A DNA stretch of 64,000 nt from Escherichia coli (GTDB taxonomy: Bacteria; Pseudomonadota; Gammaproteobacteria; Enterobacterales; Enterobacteriaceae): the NCBI RefSeq assembly GCF_003334405.1, contig NZ_QOWM01000007.1. One strand, 5' to 3'. Below are positions 10,215 through 63,245 of this stretch, piece after piece (the stretch's first letter is position 1; each line of letters opens with the position of its first letter). The position numbers were made by a program, and so were the translations under genes. The notes under the pieces are model-generated. The model searched no databases. It was not told where the DNA came from and saw nothing but the letters and a program-made list of their open reading frames with translations.

Positions 10215-10316
10215 TACATCGTAGCCGATGAGGACGCGCCTGATGGGTGTTCTGGCTACCTGACCTGTCCATTGTGGAAGGTCTTACATTCTCGCTGATT
10301 TCAGGAGCTATTGATT

Positions 10317-10730
10317 ATGCGTAACTTTGATTTATCCCCGCTTTACCGTTCTGCTATTGGATTTGACCGTTTGTTTAACCACTTAGAAAACAACCAGAGC
10401 CAGAGTAATGGCGGCTACCCTCCGTATAACGTTGAACTGGTAGACGAAAACCATTACCGCATTGCTATCGCTGTGGCTGGTTTTGCTGAGAGCGAACTGG
10501 AAATTACCGCCCAGGATAATCTGCTGGTGGTGAAAGGTGCTCACGCCGACGAACAAAAAGAGCGCACCTATCTGTACCAGGGCATCGCTGAACGCAACTT
10601 TGAACGCAAATTCCAGTTAGCTGAGAACATTCATGTTCGTGGTGCTAACCTGGTAAATGGTTTGCTGTATATCGATCTCGAACGCGTGATTCCGGAAGCG
10701 AAAAAACCGCGCCGTATCGAAATCAACTAA
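10317..10730 (+). CDS. ibpA: Small heat-shock protein IbpA (alpha-crystallin family)
   Basis: 137-aa [20 protein letters not shown]... recognised as IbpA; Shine-Dalgarno aggag at 10303-10307; the ORF-track start at 10311 is an upstream TTG. Confidence 0.95.
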
Positions 10731-24440: not shown

Positions 24441-24546
24441 ATATTTGGACAAAACGCAAACTGTGATCGATACTCAACTATGCACTAAATACGTCAAAAT
24501 TCGTGCCGAAATTGCGCGTTCTGCGCGGAACACGTATACTTTCAGT

Positions 24547-24622
24547 GTTGACATAATACAGTGTGCTTTGCGGTTACCAGCCGCAGGCGACTGACGAAAC
24601 CTCGCTCCGGCGGGGTTTTTTG
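24547..24622 (+). ncRNA. istR: Candidate IstR-1 antitoxin sRNA (boundaries approximate)
   Basis: Candidate -10 tatact at 24535-24540; a 21-nt segment (24547-24567) repeats the tisAB leader segment 24319-24339; ends at a hairpin plus gggtttttt at 24601-24622. Confidence 0.5.
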
Positions 24623-24750
24623 TTATCTGCAATTCAGTACAAAACGTGATCAACCCCTCAATTTTCCCTTGCTGAAAAATTTTCCATTGTCTCCCCTGTA
24701 AAGCTGTGCTTGTATAAATATTGTTAAACACAAAACCAACAAGGTCCCCA

Positions 24751-24849
24751 ATGACTACTTCCATGCTCAACGCAAAACTACTACCAACTGCGCCATCCGC
24801 CGCAGTGGTCGTCGTGCGTGTGGTGGTGGTCGTCGGCAATGCGCCGTAG
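24751..24849 (+). CDS. ivbL: ilvB operon leader peptide
   Basis: Translates MTTSMLNAKLLPTAPSAAVVVVRVVVVVGNAP, with the Val/Leu-rich run typical of a branched-chain amino acid attenuation leader. Confidence 0.9.
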   Translation: MTTSMLNAKLLPTAPSAAVVVVRVVVVVGNAP

Positions 24850-24873
24850 GGACTGGAACAACACACGATTCCA

Positions 24874-24907
24874 AAACCCCGCCGGCGCAAACCGGGCGGG
24901 GTTTTTC
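24874..24907 (+). terminator. ilvBN attenuator terminator
   Basis: aaaaccccgcc-ggcgcaaaccg-ggcggggttttt: GC stem flanked by A- and T-runs, 25 bp after the ivbL stop. Confidence 0.75.
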
Positions 24908-24954
24908 GTTTAAGCACCTCCCGGAAAGTCGGCCCAGAAGAAAAGGACTGGAGC

Positions 24955-26643
24955 ATGGCAAGTTCGGGCACAACATCGACGCGTAAGCGCTTTACCGGCG
25001 CAGAATTTATCGTTCATTTCCTGGAACAGCAGGGCATTAAGATTGTGACAGGCATTCCGGGCGGTTCTATCCTGCCTGTTTACGATGCCTTAAGCCAAAG
25101 CACGCAAATCCGCCATATTCTGGCCCGTCATGAACAGGGCGCGGGCTTTATCGCTCAGGGAATGGCGCGCACCGACGGTAAACCGGCGGTCTGTATGGCC
25201 TGTAGCGGACCGGGTGCGACTAACCTGGTGACCGCCATTGCCGATGCGCGGCTGGACTCCATCCCGCTGATTTGCATCACTGGTCAGGTTCCCGCCTCGA
25301 TGATCGGCACCGACGCCTTCCAGGAAGTGGACACCTACGGCATCTCTATCCCCATCACCAAACACAACTATCTGGTCAGACATATCGAAGAACTCCCGCA
25401 GGTCATGAGCGATGCCTTCCGCATTGCGCAATCAGGCCGCCCAGGCCCGGTGTGGATAGACATTCCTAAGGATGTGCAAACGGCAGTTTTTGAGATTGAA
25501 ACACAGCCCGCTATGGCAGAAAAAGCCGCCGCCCCCGCCTTTAGCGAAGAAAGCATTCGTGACGCAGCGGCGATGATTAACGCTGCCAAACGCCCGGTGC
25601 TTTATCTGGGCGGCGGTGTGATCAATGCGCCCGCACGGGTGCGTGAACTGGCGGAGAAAGCGCAACTGCCTACCACCATGACTTTAATGGCGCTGGGCAT
25701 GTTGCCAAAAGCGCATCCGTTGTCGCTGGGTATGCTGGGGATGCACGGCGTGCGCAGCACCAACTATATTTTGCAGGAGGCGGATTTGTTGATAGTGCTC
25801 GGTGCGCGTTTTGATGACCGGGCGATTGGCAAAACCGAGCAGTTCTGTCCGAATGCCAAAATCATTCATGTCGATATCGACCGTGCAGAGCTGGGTAAAA
25901 TCAAGCAGCCGCACGTGGCGATTCAGGCGGATGTTGATGACGTGCTGGCGCAGTTGATCCCGCTGGTGGAAGCGCAACCGCGTGCAGAGTGGCACCAGTT
26001 GGTAGCGGATTTGCAGCGTGAGTTTCCGTGTCCAATCCCGAAAGCGTGCGATCCGTTAAGCCATTACGGCCTGATCAACGCCGTTGCCGCCTGTGTCGAT
26101 GACAATGCAATTATCACCACCGACGTTGGTCAGCATCAGATGTGGACCGCGCAAGCTTATCCGCTCAATCGCCCACGCCAGTGGCTGACCTCCGGTGGGC
26201 TGGGCACGATGGGTTTTGGCCTGCCTGCGGCGATTGGCGCTGCGCTGGCGAACCCGGATCGCAAAGTGTTGTGTTTCTCCGGCGACGGCAGCCTGATGAT
26301 GAATATTCAGGAGATGGCGACCGCCAGTGAAAATCAGCTGGATGTCAAAATCATTCTGATGAACAACGAAGCGCTGGGGCTGGTGCATCAGCAACAGAGT
26401 CTGTTCTACGAGCAAGGCGTTTTTGCCGCCACCTATCCGGGCAAAATCAACTTTATGCAGATTGCCGCCGGATTCGGCCTCGAAACCTGTGATTTGAATA
26501 ACGAAGCCGATCCGCAGGCTTCATTGCAGGAAATCATCAATCGCCCTGGCCCGGCGCTGATCCATGTGCGCATTGATGCCGAAGAAAAAGTTTACCCGAT
26601 GGTGCCGCCAGGTGCGGCGAATACTGAAATGGTGGGGGAATAA
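24955..26643 (+). CDS. ilvB: Acetolactate synthase I large subunit (ThDP-dependent)
   Basis: 562-aa ORF; Shine-Dalgarno aaggactggag; recognised IlvB sequence. Confidence 0.95.
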   Translation: MASSGTTSTRKRFTGAEFIVHFLEQQGIKIVTGIPGGSILPVYDALSQSTQIRHILARHEQGAGFIAQGMARTDGKPAVCMACSGPGATNLVTAIADARLDSIPLICITGQVPASMIGTDAFQEVDTYGISIPITKHNYLVRHIEELPQVMSDAFRIAQSGRPGPVWIDIPKDVQTAVFEIETQPAMAEKAAAPAFSEESIRDAAAMINAAKRPVLYLGGGVINAPARVRELAEKAQLPTTMTLMALGMLPKAHPLSLGMLGMHGVRSTNYILQEADLLIVLGARFDDRAIGKTEQFCPNAKIIHVDIDRAELGKIKQPHVAIQADVDDVLAQLIPLVEAQPRAEWHQLVADLQREFPCPIPKACDPLSHYGLINAVAACVDDNAIITTDVGQHQMWTAQAYPLNRPRQWLTSGGLGTMGFGLPAAIGAALANPDRKVLCFSGDGSLMMNIQEMATASENQLDVKIILMNNEALGLVHQQQSLFYEQGVFAATYPGKINFMQIAAGFGLETCDLNNEADPQASLQEIINRPGPALIHVRIDAEEKVYPMVPPGAANTEMVGE

Positions 26644-38567: not shown

Positions 38568-39491
38568 TCACTTATGCCGCGCCGGACGATTTATTTTTCT
38601 GGCGCGGCGACGGGAATCCATTGAAATCAAAATCACCGATGACAGAATCAGCAGCGTTCCCAGCCAGTCCGGTAATGTGAACGTGATCCCCAGCAACAGC
38701 AAAGAGAGTAGCGCGCTACTTAATGGTTCTGCACAGCTCAAAATGCTGGCTTTTGGACCGCCAATTAATTGTGCTCCTTTCAGGTACAGACTAAATGTCA
38801 GGGACGTACCAATGACCACCAAATAAAAAAACGCCAGAATCAAACTGCCGTTAACGACAAAGTTTGTTCCTTGTCTGGCATAAAAAGGCAACAGAATCAG
38901 ACCGCCAATCAGCATACTCCAGCCGACGACTGGTAACGTGCCATAGCGGGCAATTAGCGTTGAGGGATAGGTGGTATAGAATGCAGCAGCAAATGCCGAG
39001 GCAATGCCCCAGAACAACGCGGCAGGAGAGATCGATAATGACGTCGGATTACCGTGTGTCACCAATAAAAAAGTCCCGACCAGCGATGTCAAAATAGCGC
39101 AGAAAACCAGAATGCCCGGGCGCGATTTACGCACCAGTGAGAACCAGGCGACGATAATCGTCGGTGAGAGGAATTGCAGCACCGTTGCCGTGGCTGCGTT
39201 CGATTTTTCGATGGTTAGCAAAAAAGTGAGCTGTACAGTTAGCGCGCCAACCACGGAAAAAATCAGCAGGCTAATGGCATCTTTATGATTGTTAATAATA
39301 GAAAAGATTTTATCGCCATGAACAAATGACAGCGTCAGTAGAATCAAACCGGCGAATATCAAACGCGTCATAGTCAAAAACTGCGACGACATCTGGCTTT
39401 GCTCCATGATGTATTGCGCGCAGACCCCTGAACTTCCCCACAACACGGCGGCAATCAGAACGTTCAGCATCCCCTTTCTGGTGGAACCCAT
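38568..39491 (-). CDS. yicL: EamA/DMT-family inner-membrane transporter YicL
   Basis: 307-aa polytopic membrane ORF recognised as YicL. Confidence 0.9.
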
Positions 39492-41422: not shown

Positions 41423-41517
41423 TGGCGGAAGATCACAGGAGTCGAACCTGCCCGGGACCGCTGGCGGCCCCAACTGGATTTGAAGTCCAGCCGCCTCACC
41501 GGAGACGACGATCTTCC
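41423..41517 (-). tRNA. selC: tRNA-Sec (selenocysteine tRNA, UCA anticodon)
   Basis: Minus strand reads GGAAGATCGTCGTCTCCGGTGAGGCGGCTGGACTTCAAATCCAGTTGGGGCCGCCAGCGGTCCCGGGCAGGTTCGACTCCTGTGATCTTCCGCCA, the E. coli selC sequence, 95 nt including the encoded CCA. Confidence 0.95.
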
Positions 41518-55684: not shown

Positions 55685-58862
<3,178 letters not shown>

Positions 58863-59153
58863 GGTTCTCTCCCTAAAAATCTGTCTGGCAGGGTAGCGAT
58901 TTGTGCGTATTGTCACGATTGAGATTTTTTAAGGTGAGAGGAAATTGATAACTTGTAGTTATGTGAAATCGCTATTTTCTGTAGCGTAGATGCATTCTTC
59001 TGACTTCTTGTCTGAGAAAATGCATAAGAAAAAATAGGTTAAAATTGAGGGGTGGAAAAGAAAGGTGCAATGTTTAGCCATTGTGTTCACCGCACCTGGA
59101 CTTTGGCTTACGCATCGGGTATCTCAATCAACAAAAAGAGTTTTTAGTTTCTG

Positions 59154-59978
59154 CTATTTCTTCTCTGTAATTTTTACACTGTTTTCCAACTGCTTGATGC
59201 TGACCTGCGGGGTCGGCAACTCCTCAGGCATGGTTCCGCCAAGTTCCTGAATGGTTTGCATCACCTTGCTACCCACGTCAAAGTGTGTGGTATTAGCTTG
59301 CTGTTTTGAATTCACGCCATCCCGCTTGAGTTTTTCTTCTGTTTGGGTAGCTCGAAAGAGATTAGCCGCCAGTTCTGTTGAACCCATATGATCCAGGATC
59401 TTCTGATTCTTTTTCAGCCCCTTCCGCTGATGAATAGCTTTCTGATCTAATCCACCATACAGCCCCTGGTAACCATGATTCTGAAATATGGCGAAATCAG
59501 TAGCTGTCGCTACCCCAGCTTGCTGTGCTGCCTCAACCAATTGTTTGTTATGTTCTTTCAACTCATTTCTCAGAAACAGACGCTTTTCGTCTTCACGAAG
59601 TTGCTTAAATGCTTCATCGTCAGCAAGCTCCTGCCGTCGGGTCTGGATAGCAAAATAAGTCTGCCCTGCCGCAATGACCGGTTTCGCAGGGTCGCCGTTT
59701 TGTACTACCAGGTAACAGGCATAGCGGGAGAGTACGATGTCTTTTAATGCTCTTTTGGCATTTGAGCCAATTTTGACCATATCGAGGATCTCCTCGAAAT
59801 GGTCATCAATTGTGTGACCACTGTTCTCACAGGCTTCTTTGGCGCGCGTTAATACAGGTATAAAGTGACGATACTCTGAATAACCCAGTAGTTTCCCAAG
59901 TTGTCTTGCTGACCATTGTTCTGCTCCGTTTGCATTAATCAGTTTTATCTCTTCAAAAGGTTGATGATGTTCGTTCAT
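59154..59978 (-). CDS. dinD: DNA-damage-inducible protein D
   Basis: ORF 59154..59990 trimmed to MNEHHQPFEEIKLINANGAEQ... (274 aa). Confidence 0.9.
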   Translation of the reverse strand: MNEHHQPFEEIKLINANGAEQWSARQLGKLLGYSEYRHFIPVLTRAKEACENSGHTIDDHFEEILDMVKIGSNAKRALKDIVLSRYACYLVVQNGDPAKPVIAAGQTYFAIQTRRQELADDEAFKQLREDEKRLFLRNELKEHNKQLVEAAQQAGVATATDFAIFQNHGYQGLYGGLDQKAIHQRKGLKKNQKILDHMGSTELAANLFRATQTEEKLKRDGVNSKQQANTTHFDVGSKVMQTIQELGGTMPEELPTPQVSIKQLENSVKITEKK

Positions 59979-60021
59979 TGCCCACTCCATGTGATATCAA
60001 TTGCAAAGAAAGTAAATCTGT

Positions 60022-60041
60022 AACTGTATTTATATACAGTT
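60022..60041. promoter_or_regulatory. LexA operator upstream of dinD
   Basis: aactgtatttatatacagtt, a CTGT-N8-ACAG palindrome, 44 bp upstream of the dinD start. Confidence 0.7.
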
Positions 60042-60133
60042 GTGAGTATCTCACGTTCTCAGTGTGCTGGGCAAAAAAACATCGCAAAATCTGGAGCAGG
60101 CACGAAAAACAGAATTGAAAGTTGCGGGGAAGA

Positions 60134-60199: not shown

Positions 60200-61063
60200 T
60201 TATTCAATATTCTGAATCTGCTCGCGCATCTGCTCAATCAACACTTTCAGCTCAATCGCGGAGTTTGTCACTTCGGCATTGATAGACTTCGACGCAAGAG
60301 TGTTCGACTCGCGGTTGAACTCCTGCATCATAAAGTCCAGACGACGACCAACGGCTTCTTTTTTCTTCAGAATGTTGTAGGTCTCTTTGACATGCGCTTC
60401 GAGGCGGTCCAGTTCTTCGGCAACGTCAATTCGTTGTGCCAGCAGAACCAACTCCTGCTCCAGACGGTTGTTTTCCAACTGAACCTGAGCATCTTCCAGC
60501 TTCGCGACCAAGCGTTCACGCTGCCATTGCAGGATTTCCGGCATATGGGAGCGGACTTTGACCACTTCGGCGGTGACGCCTTCCAGACGCTGCTCGATCA
60601 ATGCTTTCAGTGCCTGACCTTCGGTTTCGCGCGCGACAATAAAGTCGTCCAGCGTACCATCCAGCGCCGCGAGAATTTCAGCGGCAATGGCGTCAAGATC
60701 CTGCTCCTGGGCTGCCATCACGCCCGGCCAGCGTAGAATATCAACCGGGTTGATTTCCCCTTCGTCACTCTGCATTTTTACCCAGTTCGCGGCAGTTACC
60801 AGCTGTTTAGCCAGTTTTTCGTTGAGGATCAGCTCACCTTGCGCGCTAACATCTGGCTCATAGCGCAGGGTACATTCCACTTTACCGCGCGTCAGGCGAG
60901 AACGAATACGCTCGCGAACGACAGGTTCAAGGCTACGGAACTGCTCCGGCAGACGAAAGTAAGTTTCCAGATAACGCTGGTTTACCGAGCGCATTTCCCA
61001 GGTTGCGCTCCCCCATTCACCCTTGATTTCACGCCGGGCGTAGGCGGTCATACTGCGGATCAT
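60200..61063 (-). CDS. yicC: YicC-family protein (UPF0701)
   Basis: 287-aa ORF recognised as YicC. Confidence 0.9.
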   Translation of the reverse strand: MIRSMTAYARREIKGEWGSATWEMRSVNQRYLETYFRLPEQFRSLEPVVRERIRSRLTRGKVECTLRYEPDVSAQGELILNEKLAKQLVTAANWVKMQSDEGEINPVDILRWPGVMAAQEQDLDAIAAEILAALDGTLDDFIVARETEGQALKALIEQRLEGVTAEVVKVRSHMPEILQWQRERLVAKLEDAQVQLENNRLEQELVLLAQRIDVAEELDRLEAHVKETYNILKKKEAVGRRLDFMMQEFNRESNTLASKSINAEVTNSAIELKVLIEQMREQIQNIE

Positions 61064-61189
61064 AGACGTTCCTGTTTATAAAAGGAGAGGTGGAAGGATT
61101 ATAGCCATCGATGCCTTGTCAGGATAGGAATAACCGCCGGAAGTCCGTATAATGCGCAGCCACATTTGTTTCAAGCCGGAGATTTCAAT

Positions 61190-61906
61190 ATGCGTCCAGC
61201 AGGCCGTAGCAATAATCAGGTGCGTCCCGTTACCCTGACTCGTAACTATACAAAACATGCAGAAGGCTCGGTGCTGGTCGAATTTGGCGATACCAAAGTG
61301 TTGTGTACCGCCTCTATTGAAGAAGGCGTGCCGCGCTTCCTGAAAGGTCAGGGCCAGGGCTGGATCACCGCAGAGTACGGCATGCTGCCACGTTCTACCC
61401 ACACCCGTAACGCTCGTGAAGCGGCGAAAGGTAAGCAGGGTGGACGCACAATGGAAATCCAGCGTCTGATCGCCCGTGCGCTTCGCGCGGCAGTAGATTT
61501 GAAAGCGCTGGGTGAGTTCACCATTACGCTGGACTGCGACGTGCTTCAGGCTGATGGTGGCACGCGTACCGCTTCGATTACGGGTGCCTGTGTGGCGCTG
61601 GCAGATGCGCTACAGAAGCTGGTGGAAAACGGCAAGCTGAAAACCAACCCGATGAAAGGGATGGTAGCCGCGGTTTCTGTCGGGATTGTGAACGGCGAAG
61701 CGGTTTGCGATCTGGAATACGTTGAAGACTCTGCCGCAGAGACCGACATGAACGTAGTGATGACCGAAGACGGGCGCATCATTGAAGTGCAGGGGACGGC
61801 AGAAGGCGAGCCGTTCACCCATGAAGAGCTACTCACCTTGTTGGCGCTGGCCCGAGGGGGAATCGAATCCATTGTAGCGACGCAGAAGGCGGCGCTGGCA
61901 AACTGA
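61190..61906 (+). CDS. rph: Ribonuclease PH, full-length wild-type form
   Basis: ORF 61166..61906 (TTG) trimmed to the [17 protein letters not shown]... (238 aa), ending ...[16 protein letters not shown]; not the 228-aa truncated rph-1 form. Confidence 0.95.
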
Positions 61907-61912
61907 TTTTTA

Positions 61913-61938
61913 AGGCGACTGATGAGTCGCTTTTTTTT
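61913..61938 (+). terminator. pyrE attenuator terminator
   Basis: gcgact-gatg-agtcgc hairpin followed by tttttttt, starting 7 bp after the rph stop and 33 bp before the pyrE ATG. Confidence 0.7.
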
Positions 61939-61970
61939 GTCTGTAGAAAAGTAAGATGAGGAGCGAAGGC

Positions 61971-62612
61971 ATGAAACCATATCAGCGCCAGTTTATTGAA
62001 TTTGCGCTTAGCAAGCAGGTGTTAAAGTTTGGCGAGTTTACGCTGAAATCCGGGCGTAAAAGCCCCTATTTCTTCAACGCCGGGCTGTTTAATACCGGGC
62101 GCGACCTGGCACTGTTAGGCCGTTTTTACGCTGAAGCATTGGTGGACTCCGGCATTGAGTTCGATCTGCTGTTTGGCCCTGCTTACAAAGGGATCCCGAT
62201 TGCCACCACAACCGCCGTGGCGTTGGCGGAGCATCATGACCTGGACCTGCCGTACTGCTTTAACCGCAAAGAGGCAAAAGACCACGGTGAAGGCGGCAAT
62301 CTGGTTGGTAGCGCGTTACAAGGACGCGTAATGCTGGTAGATGATGTGATCACCGCCGGAACGGCGATTCGTGAGTCGATGGAAATTATTCAGGCCAATG
62401 GCGCGACGCTTGCTGGCGTGTTGATTTCGCTCGATCGTCAGGAACGGGGGCGCGGCGAGATTTCGGCGATTCAGGAAGTTGAGCGTGATTACAACTGCAA
62501 AGTGATCTCTATCATCACCCTGAAAGATCTGATTGCTTACCTGGAAGAGAAGCCGGAAATGGCGGAACATCTGGCGGCGGTTAAGGCCTATCGCGAAGAG
62601 TTTGGCGTTTAA
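61971..62612 (+). CDS. pyrE: Orotate phosphoribosyltransferase
   Basis: ORF 61956..62612 trimmed to [21 protein letters not shown]... (213 aa); PRPP-binding motif [14 protein letters not shown]. Confidence 0.95.
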
Positions 62613-62648
62613 AGAAACTCGCCGGATGAAAATTCATCCGGCGTCATA

Positions 62649-63245
62649 TTACTGCAACTGCGCGGCAATTAGCGGCCAGCGGGCGTCAAAATCATCCGTC
62701 GGGCGGTATTTAAATTCGCTGCGGACAAAACGTGACAGCATACCTTCACAGAAGGCCAGGATCTGGCTTGCCAGCAGGGTTTCATCGGTGGTGTAACCTT
62801 CACCCTCACGCATTCTCTTTTCACGCAATACCTGGCGCAGCTGCGCTTCAATACGCTCGAACAGCTGGTTGATGCGCCCTTGCAGGCGATCCTGTTCAAA
62901 CATTAGCGCATGACCAGTGAGGATGCGGGTCAGGCCAGGATTACGCTCACCAAAACCGAGAAGCAGCAACACAATCAGACGCAGGCGCGCTGTGGTGTCT
63001 TTCTCATCTTTCAGAATCAGATTGATGCGAGTAATCAGGCTATCTTCGATAAACTCAATCAGGCTATCGAACATGCGGGTCTTACTGGGGAAGTGGCGAT
63101 ACAGTGCCGCTTCGGAAACGCCGACAGAGGCGGCCAGTTTTGCCGTCGTGATACGTTGGCTTCCATCGCTGGATTCCAGCATCAGCGCCAGAGACTGAAG
63201 TATTTCCTCGCGACGGTTCCTTTTCGCAGTTTGTTTTTCTGCCAT
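62649..63245 (-). CDS. slmA: Nucleoid occlusion factor SlmA (TetR family)
   Basis: ORF 62649..63287 trimmed to [20 protein letters not shown]... (198 aa); N-terminal TetR-type HTH. Confidence 0.9.

Follow-up and report, generated by a model that had tools for sequence, protein, structure and literature searches.

The intercistronic attenuator between rph and pyrE of Escherichia coli K-12 was reportedly described by Bonekamp et al. (1984) and Poulsen et al. (1984). The attenuation model built on it is said to have been established by Bonekamp (1984) and Jensen (1993), and the rph-1 allele of MG1655 and W3110 is likewise credited to Jensen (1993). To our knowledge, K-12 is the only strain in which this attenuator has been characterized, and we know of no sequence relationship between it and the attenuator of the pyrBI leader. 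A ribosome covers roughly 12–15 nt of mRNA downstream of its decoding site. The pyrBI attenuator works in the same way, in that UTP-sensitive pausing of the polymerase determines how closely the ribosome follows, and a close ribosome blocks the terminator (PMC7818426), but pyrBI has a short dedicated leader peptide, whereas pyrE uses the end of the full-size, functional rph gene as its leader. In K-12, a ribosome that is close behind the polymerase at low UTP blocks the terminator and pyrE is transcribed (PMC2784333, PMC11148124, PMC7818426). The same papers describe the phenotype of rph-1 (PMC2784333, PMC11148124, PMC7818426): the ribosome leaves the mRNA early, resulting in constitutively high termination, low OPRTase levels and partial pyrimidine starvation (PMC2784333). 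During laboratory evolution of MG1655, this defect has been repaired repeatedly by an 82-bp deletion that puts the stop codon beside the hairpin (PMC2784333). K-12 strains that are rph+, such as JM83, also exist (PMC11148124).

The operon analyzed here lies near the end of a 64,000-nt stretch of E. coli DNA (the window), and its features are collected in Table 1. The rph reading frame comprises 239 codons including the stop and, as its translation confirmed, specifies a 238-aa product, the wild-type length that the original prediction had assigned to it. We assessed family membership with TIGR01966, the NCBIfam RNase PH equivalog model, taking a score above the curated cut-off together with end-to-end coverage of the model as the test. 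The product scored 380.8 bits against a cut-off of 141.5 and covered model positions 1–235 of 236, whereas the truncated MG1655 product covers positions 1–221 only. The two-domain architecture was present, with PF01138 (RNase_PH) at residues 10–140 (E = 1.7e-30) followed by PF03725 (RNase_PH_C) at residues 157–222 (E = 1.4e-15). The closest solved structure was P. aeruginosa RNase PH (1R6L; E = 3.7e-104, residues 2–237), and the B. subtilis and Aquifex RNase PH structures were full-length matches too. In RefSeq, an identical sequence is labeled rph (WP_001247093.1) and is annotated in two independent genomes, E. coli M217 and 23CRST050. The window rph is full length, and to judge from its sequence its product is a complete RNase PH that would be expected to act as a phosphorolytic 3′–5′ exoribonuclease. 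A 144-aa ORF on the opposite strand (61546–61980) runs antisense to the conserved end of rph; it had no independent support and was set aside.

Table 1. Features of the rph–pyrE region and noncoding RNA elements of the window (positions are those of the window).
Feature	Position	Strand	Evidence
rph, full-length RNase PH, 238 aa plus TGA (start codon ATG)	61190–61906	+	ORF, translation, TIGR01966, Pfam, RefSeq
GGGGG run, codons G223–G224, site of the rph-1 one-G deletion, intact	61856–61860	+	MG1655 alignment, position check
rph stop codon TGA	61904–61906	+	translation, position check
U-rich spacer TTTTT between rph stop and terminator stem	61907–61911	+	sequence
Attenuator hairpin, total	61912–61933	+	pattern scan, RNAfold, alignment
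Hairpin 5′ arm AAGGCGACT	61912–61920	+	pattern scan, RNAfold
Hairpin loop GATG	61921–61924	+	pattern scan, RNAfold
Hairpin 3′ arm AGTCGCTTT	61925–61933	+	pattern scan, RNAfold
T8 run, terminator U-tract; first three can pair with A61912, A61913 and G61915	61931–61938	+	sequence
GAGGAG, likely pyrE ribosome-binding site, 7 nt before ATG	61958–61963	+	sequence, cross-species conservation; putative function
pyrE, orotate phosphoribosyltransferase, 213 aa	61971–62612	+	ORF, TIGR00336, RefSeq
ES036/CssrF sRNA	77–119	−	Rfam, 44.8 bits
ROSE_2 thermosensor upstream of ibpA	10251–10323	+	Rfam, 100 bits
istR	24492–24621	+	Rfam, 150 bits

To compare the locus with that of the reference strain, we aligned window positions 61100–62000 (901 nt) with MG1655 (NC_000913, 3814000–3818000). 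The alignment revealed nine substitutions (61480, 61573, 61591, 61602, 61648, 61672, 61684, 61836 and 61846), two of them non-synonymous (61602 and 61836) and seven synonymous, together with two single-base indels. The first indel is the rph-1 deletion itself: the GGGGG of the window is shortened to GGGG in MG1655, and from this run to the window stop codon the two sequences are otherwise identical. This is the single-base difference that had been foreseen, at a run placed at 61855–61859, one base short of its actual position. In rph-1 the frame shifts after G223; translation of the MG1655 gene (NC_000913, 3815863–3816549, annotated as truncated RNase PH) gave 228 aa ending in ...LLALARGESNPL, that is, in ESNPL, confirming the truncation that had been stated for this strain. 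Having five G and a 238-aa product in place of four G and 228 aa, the window gene does not belong to the rph-1 class. The frameshift also displaces the stop codon: the TAG of MG1655 lies 34 nt before the hairpin stem, which makes pyrE expression polar, whereas the window stop lies 5 nt before it. When compared to an rph+ K-12 strain such as JM83, the window has the same protein length (238 aa), C-terminus, stop position and operon layout, and it differs by two residue changes, V138A (61602) and I216T (61836), by the seven synonymous substitutions and by one C fewer in the attenuator stem, which is the second indel.

The frequency of each allele was determined by searching exact queries of 70–72 nt against 5,426 complete E. 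coli genomes. The MG1655 rph-1 region (GGGG, 71-mer) was found in 167 of 5,356 genomes; the 40 matches listed were all K-12 laboratory derivatives, including MG1655, W3110, BW25113, J53, HMS174 and evolved clones. By contrast, the window G-run region (GGGGG, 71-mer) was found in 1,639 of 5,423, and a synthetic version of it lacking one G in a single genome of 5,423. These counts indicate that rph+ is the ancestral, normal state of nearly all E. coli and that rph-1 essentially marks one laboratory lineage. The intact gene had been proposed as a useful lineage marker. It does exclude descent from MG1655 or W3110, but it tells nothing more, rph-1 being as restricted as it is, and it adds little here because nine substitutions in 901 nt already show that the DNA is not from K-12. 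The attenuator proved to be the more discriminating marker: the single-C form of the window was found exactly in 488 of 5,411 genomes and the CC form of MG1655 in 4,581 of 5,411, so that the single-C form, present in about 9% of complete genomes, is a genuine minority allele. The sole match to the synthetic four-G query came from a non-K-12 human stool isolate, E. coli 2015C-3101 (NZ_CP027221.1, 5050248–5052117), whose rph is marked as frameshifted in RefSeq; this rph-1-like lesion outside K-12 is either real or mis-assembled.

Both a pattern scan and RNAfold identified one hairpin between rph and pyrE, with a 9-pair stem, a 4-nt loop and a following U-run, on the coding strand, which constitutes an intrinsic terminator. 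The 51-nt stretch that contains it folded better than 198 of 200 shuffled sequences (z = −3.2). Searched against Rfam, neither the attenuator nor anything else in 61000–62700 matched a family, even at E ≤ 1. The stop codon had been said to lie 7 bp before the hairpin; this distance holds for the G-C core, which begins at G61914, but the base of the stem, when the A-U pairs are included, is only 5 nt away. In its position, 5′ arm, loop and 8-T run, as well as in its distances from the rph stop and to pyrE, the hairpin is the same as that of K-12. The 3′ arm, however, reads AGTCGC-T8 in the window and AGTCGCC-T8 in K-12, a C being missing between 61930 and 61931 (GAGTCG-CTTTTTTTT in the window, GAGTCGCCTTTTTTTT in MG1655), so that the hairpin is not identical with the experimentally characterized one. 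Because of this missing C, the pair that is G-C in MG1655 is replaced by a G·U pair between G61915 and U61931, and the predicted stability of the isolated hairpin drops by about 2.7 kcal/mol (−11.6 versus −14.3 kcal/mol). Three tract U residues are drawn into the stem instead of two, leaving five unpaired rather than six. The original prediction of an intact attenuator with normal attenuation is thus right in that a terminator is present, but overlooks the 1-nt deletion in its stem relative to K-12. Because the hairpin carries this deletion relative to the characterized K-12 one, normal pyrE regulation in the window strain is something that we infer, with help from the occurrence of the allele in several hundred complete genomes and of the same G·U form in five other species.

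The arrangement is the one expected from the K-12 model, in which the last codons of rph would double as the leader of a UTP-sensitive pyrE attenuator. When UTP is scarce, RNA polymerase would lag at U-rich sites with the ribosome that finishes rph just behind it; positioned on the TGA, this ribosome would cover the 5′ arm of the hairpin, no terminator would form and transcription would run on into pyrE. With ample UTP, the polymerase would run ahead, the hairpin and U-run would form and transcription would stop. The geometry fits a functional state, since the stop lies 5–7 nt from the stem and therefore within the ribosome footprint, near enough for a terminating ribosome to cover the 5′ arm; it is from the known size of this footprint that occlusion of the hairpin is predicted. 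With the G5 run intact, translation would reach the stop adjoining the hairpin, and for this reason the polarity of MG1655 should be absent from the window strain.

To examine whether this design is conserved, we used a degenerate pattern covering pyrE codons 1–11 to search a single genome of each species, which yielded 120 loci, almost all from Enterobacteriaceae and a few from Budviciaceae. In 118 of the 120 species-level genomes, the rph stop is separated by a T-rich spacer of 2–8 nt from a hairpin that is built in the same way and has a T-run behind it. The exceptions were Budvicia diplopodorum, in which no hairpin was found, and Kluyvera genomosp. 3. In strain YDC799 of the latter (CP022114.1, 157060–162910), the rph run is GGGG, the protein ends in ...LLALARGESNPL* and 34 nt separate the stop from the attenuator, which is precisely the K-12 rph-1 arrangement, while the neighboring ORFs yicC, pyrE and slmA are undamaged. 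Either the lesion recurred independently at a run prone to slippage, or the assembly contains a homopolymer error. The slippage-prone run was also compared at rph codons 222–224 in 123 sequences, for which the window, MG1655 and E. coli M217 were added to the 120 species-level genomes: 83 have G5, 7 have G7 and 9 have an interrupted run of G3, and the pattern was unmatched in 22.

The hairpin core, GCGAC/GTCGC, is almost invariant across species. Because variable loop lengths make automatic alignment unreliable, we tallied base pairs directly, anchored on this core, rather than with RNAalifold or a covariance model. The pair just outside the core, which is the one changed in the window, was G-C in 103, A-U in nine and G·U in five of 117 sequences, with no mismatches, and two-sided changes from G-C to A-U were seen at it; the middle core pair was A-U in 110, G·U in six and G-C in one. 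The paired structure of the stem has thus been preserved while bases on both sides changed. The form of the window, GGCGAC...GTCGC-U, also occurs in Siccibacter colletis, S. turicensis, Tenebrionibacter intestinalis, Citrobacter sp. JGM124 and one MAG. Given that the G·U hairpin is shared with these five other enterobacterial species, the single-C hairpin is most likely still a working terminator. The CC form is found in E. albertii, Escherichia sp. E1V33, Escherichia sp. MOD1-EC7003 and the E. coli E69 representative. Because other Escherichia carry CC, the single-C allele is, by this comparison, a derived one that arose within E. coli.

Downstream of the attenuator, and 64 nt from the end of rph, begins pyrE, whose product scored 240.6 bits against TIGR00336 (cut-off 106.8) and for which an identical sequence is annotated pyrE in RefSeq. 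At the position of the candidate pyrE ribosome-binding site, GAGGAG or AGGAG is kept across species. As in annotated E. coli genomes, yicC (60200–61063) lies upstream of rph on the opposite strand, and slmA and dut lie downstream of pyrE. A promoter scan revealed no σ70 consensus upstream of rph; a perfect TATAAT is present at 61148–61153, but no good −35 hexamer lies 16–18 nt from it, and we make no promoter claim for it. In E. coli 23CRST050 (NZ_AP045825.1, 4383875–4388920), a transposase gene of the IS200/IS605 family is located between the attenuator and pyrE, and the match to the window ends just past the T-run.

The surroundings of the operon were examined by searching three overlapping 25-kb pieces of the window, which were collinear with non-K-12 isolates at approximately 100% identity. 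The isolates matched at this level were MDK6L1, EC416, NCTC9087, ML35 and NCTC10973. At the gathering threshold, an Rfam scan of the whole window yielded only istR, ROSE_2, tRNA-Sec and ES036, all of them outside rph–pyrE. The tRNA-Sec gene (selC, 41427–41517, minus strand), a classic site of pathogenicity-island integration, is unoccupied in the window; in several otherwise identical genomes, about 11 kb of inserted DNA, including primase-helicase and SIR2-family genes, occupies the selC interval. Given the collinear non-K-12 matches and the lack of an island at selC, the window is an ordinary commensal-type E. coli chromosome segment, extending from dgoR to coaBC. E. coli M217 (NZ_AP019189.1) was the first 100% match for the 901-nt stretch and is identical to the window across rph–pyrE. 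It carries two copies of ISKox3 (ISL3 family), between tisB and ivbL and between dinD and yicC, to be compared with window positions of about 24600–26000 and 58700–60100. At least the dinD–yicC copy is absent from the window, because window positions 39001–64000 align uninterrupted with genomes that list no such insertion. M217 was rejected as a whole-window reference on account of ISKox3 insertions that the window lacks.

Combined, these results make it very probable that the window carries the ordinary wild-type rph–pyrE operon of a non-K-12 E. coli, with a common one-base variant in the attenuator. The frame and length of rph, the single-G difference from MG1655, the RNase PH and PyrE memberships, the terminator, the position of the stop, the cross-species conservation and the allele counts all argue for this reading. 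Against it weigh V138A and I216T, which may affect the enzyme, although the same protein is annotated in independent genomes, and a hairpin whose predicted stability falls 2.7 kcal/mol short of that of the K-12 hairpin used in all experiments, so that quantitatively normal attenuation is a presumption. There is next to no chance that the extra G and the missing C of the window arose through faulty sequencing or assembly. Although each alters the length of a short run by one base, which is the error that assemblies show most often, the 71-mers that span them recur exactly in 1,639 and 488 complete genomes, at least 30 independent assemblies match all 901 nt with 100% identity, and with five G the protein regains the C-terminus that is conserved in all other species; the exact allele matches and the identical assemblies refute an artifact. 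It is equally far-fetched that the window comes from a K-12 derivative with a repaired rph-1, or from a branch of K-12 that, like JM83, never acquired the allele. The existence of rph+ K-12 strains (PMC11148124), the K-12 layout of the window genes and the empty selC site would agree with such an origin, but the substitutions from MG1655, two of which alter the protein, and the attenuator C-deletion do not, and the best whole-window matches, at approximately 100%, are to the non-K-12 strains MDK6L1, EC416, NCTC9087 and ML35. The alignment to MG1655 refutes a K-12 origin.

A different possibility, which leaves the operon wild type but not its regulation, is that the one-C deletion makes the attenuator leakier than that of rph+ K-12 and most E. 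coli, giving higher basal pyrE expression or a narrower range and hence altered attenuation. The replacement of G-C by G·U, with its predicted loss of stability, the additional tract U drawn into the stem with five rather than six left unpaired, and the fact that the allele is derived relative to the CC of the other Escherichia and in the minority (488 versus 4,581 genomes) all point in this direction. We nevertheless consider it rather unlikely. Five other species have the G·U form as their sole allele and nine have A-U at the same pair, which means that natural attenuators tolerate weaker outer pairs; the 6-pair G-C core is untouched; and the presence of the allele in 9% of complete genomes, from varied hosts, argues against harm.

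The strain from which the window derives would be without the defect of MG1655 and W3110, namely partial pyrimidine starvation and loss of RNase PH, and studies of physiology or tRNA processing in this strain would not suffer from the rph-1 artifact, although the practical value of this is small. The biology of rph-1 and of the attenuator is already known from the literature of 1984–1993, whereas we found no paper describing the one-C attenuator deletion. The one-C deletion could conceivably be a natural regulatory polymorphism that shifts the set-point of pyrE attenuation through a leakier terminator, although the odds are against it; if so, the single-C allele would change pyrimidine homeostasis in one E. 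coli lineage, a result that even then would be of modest interest.
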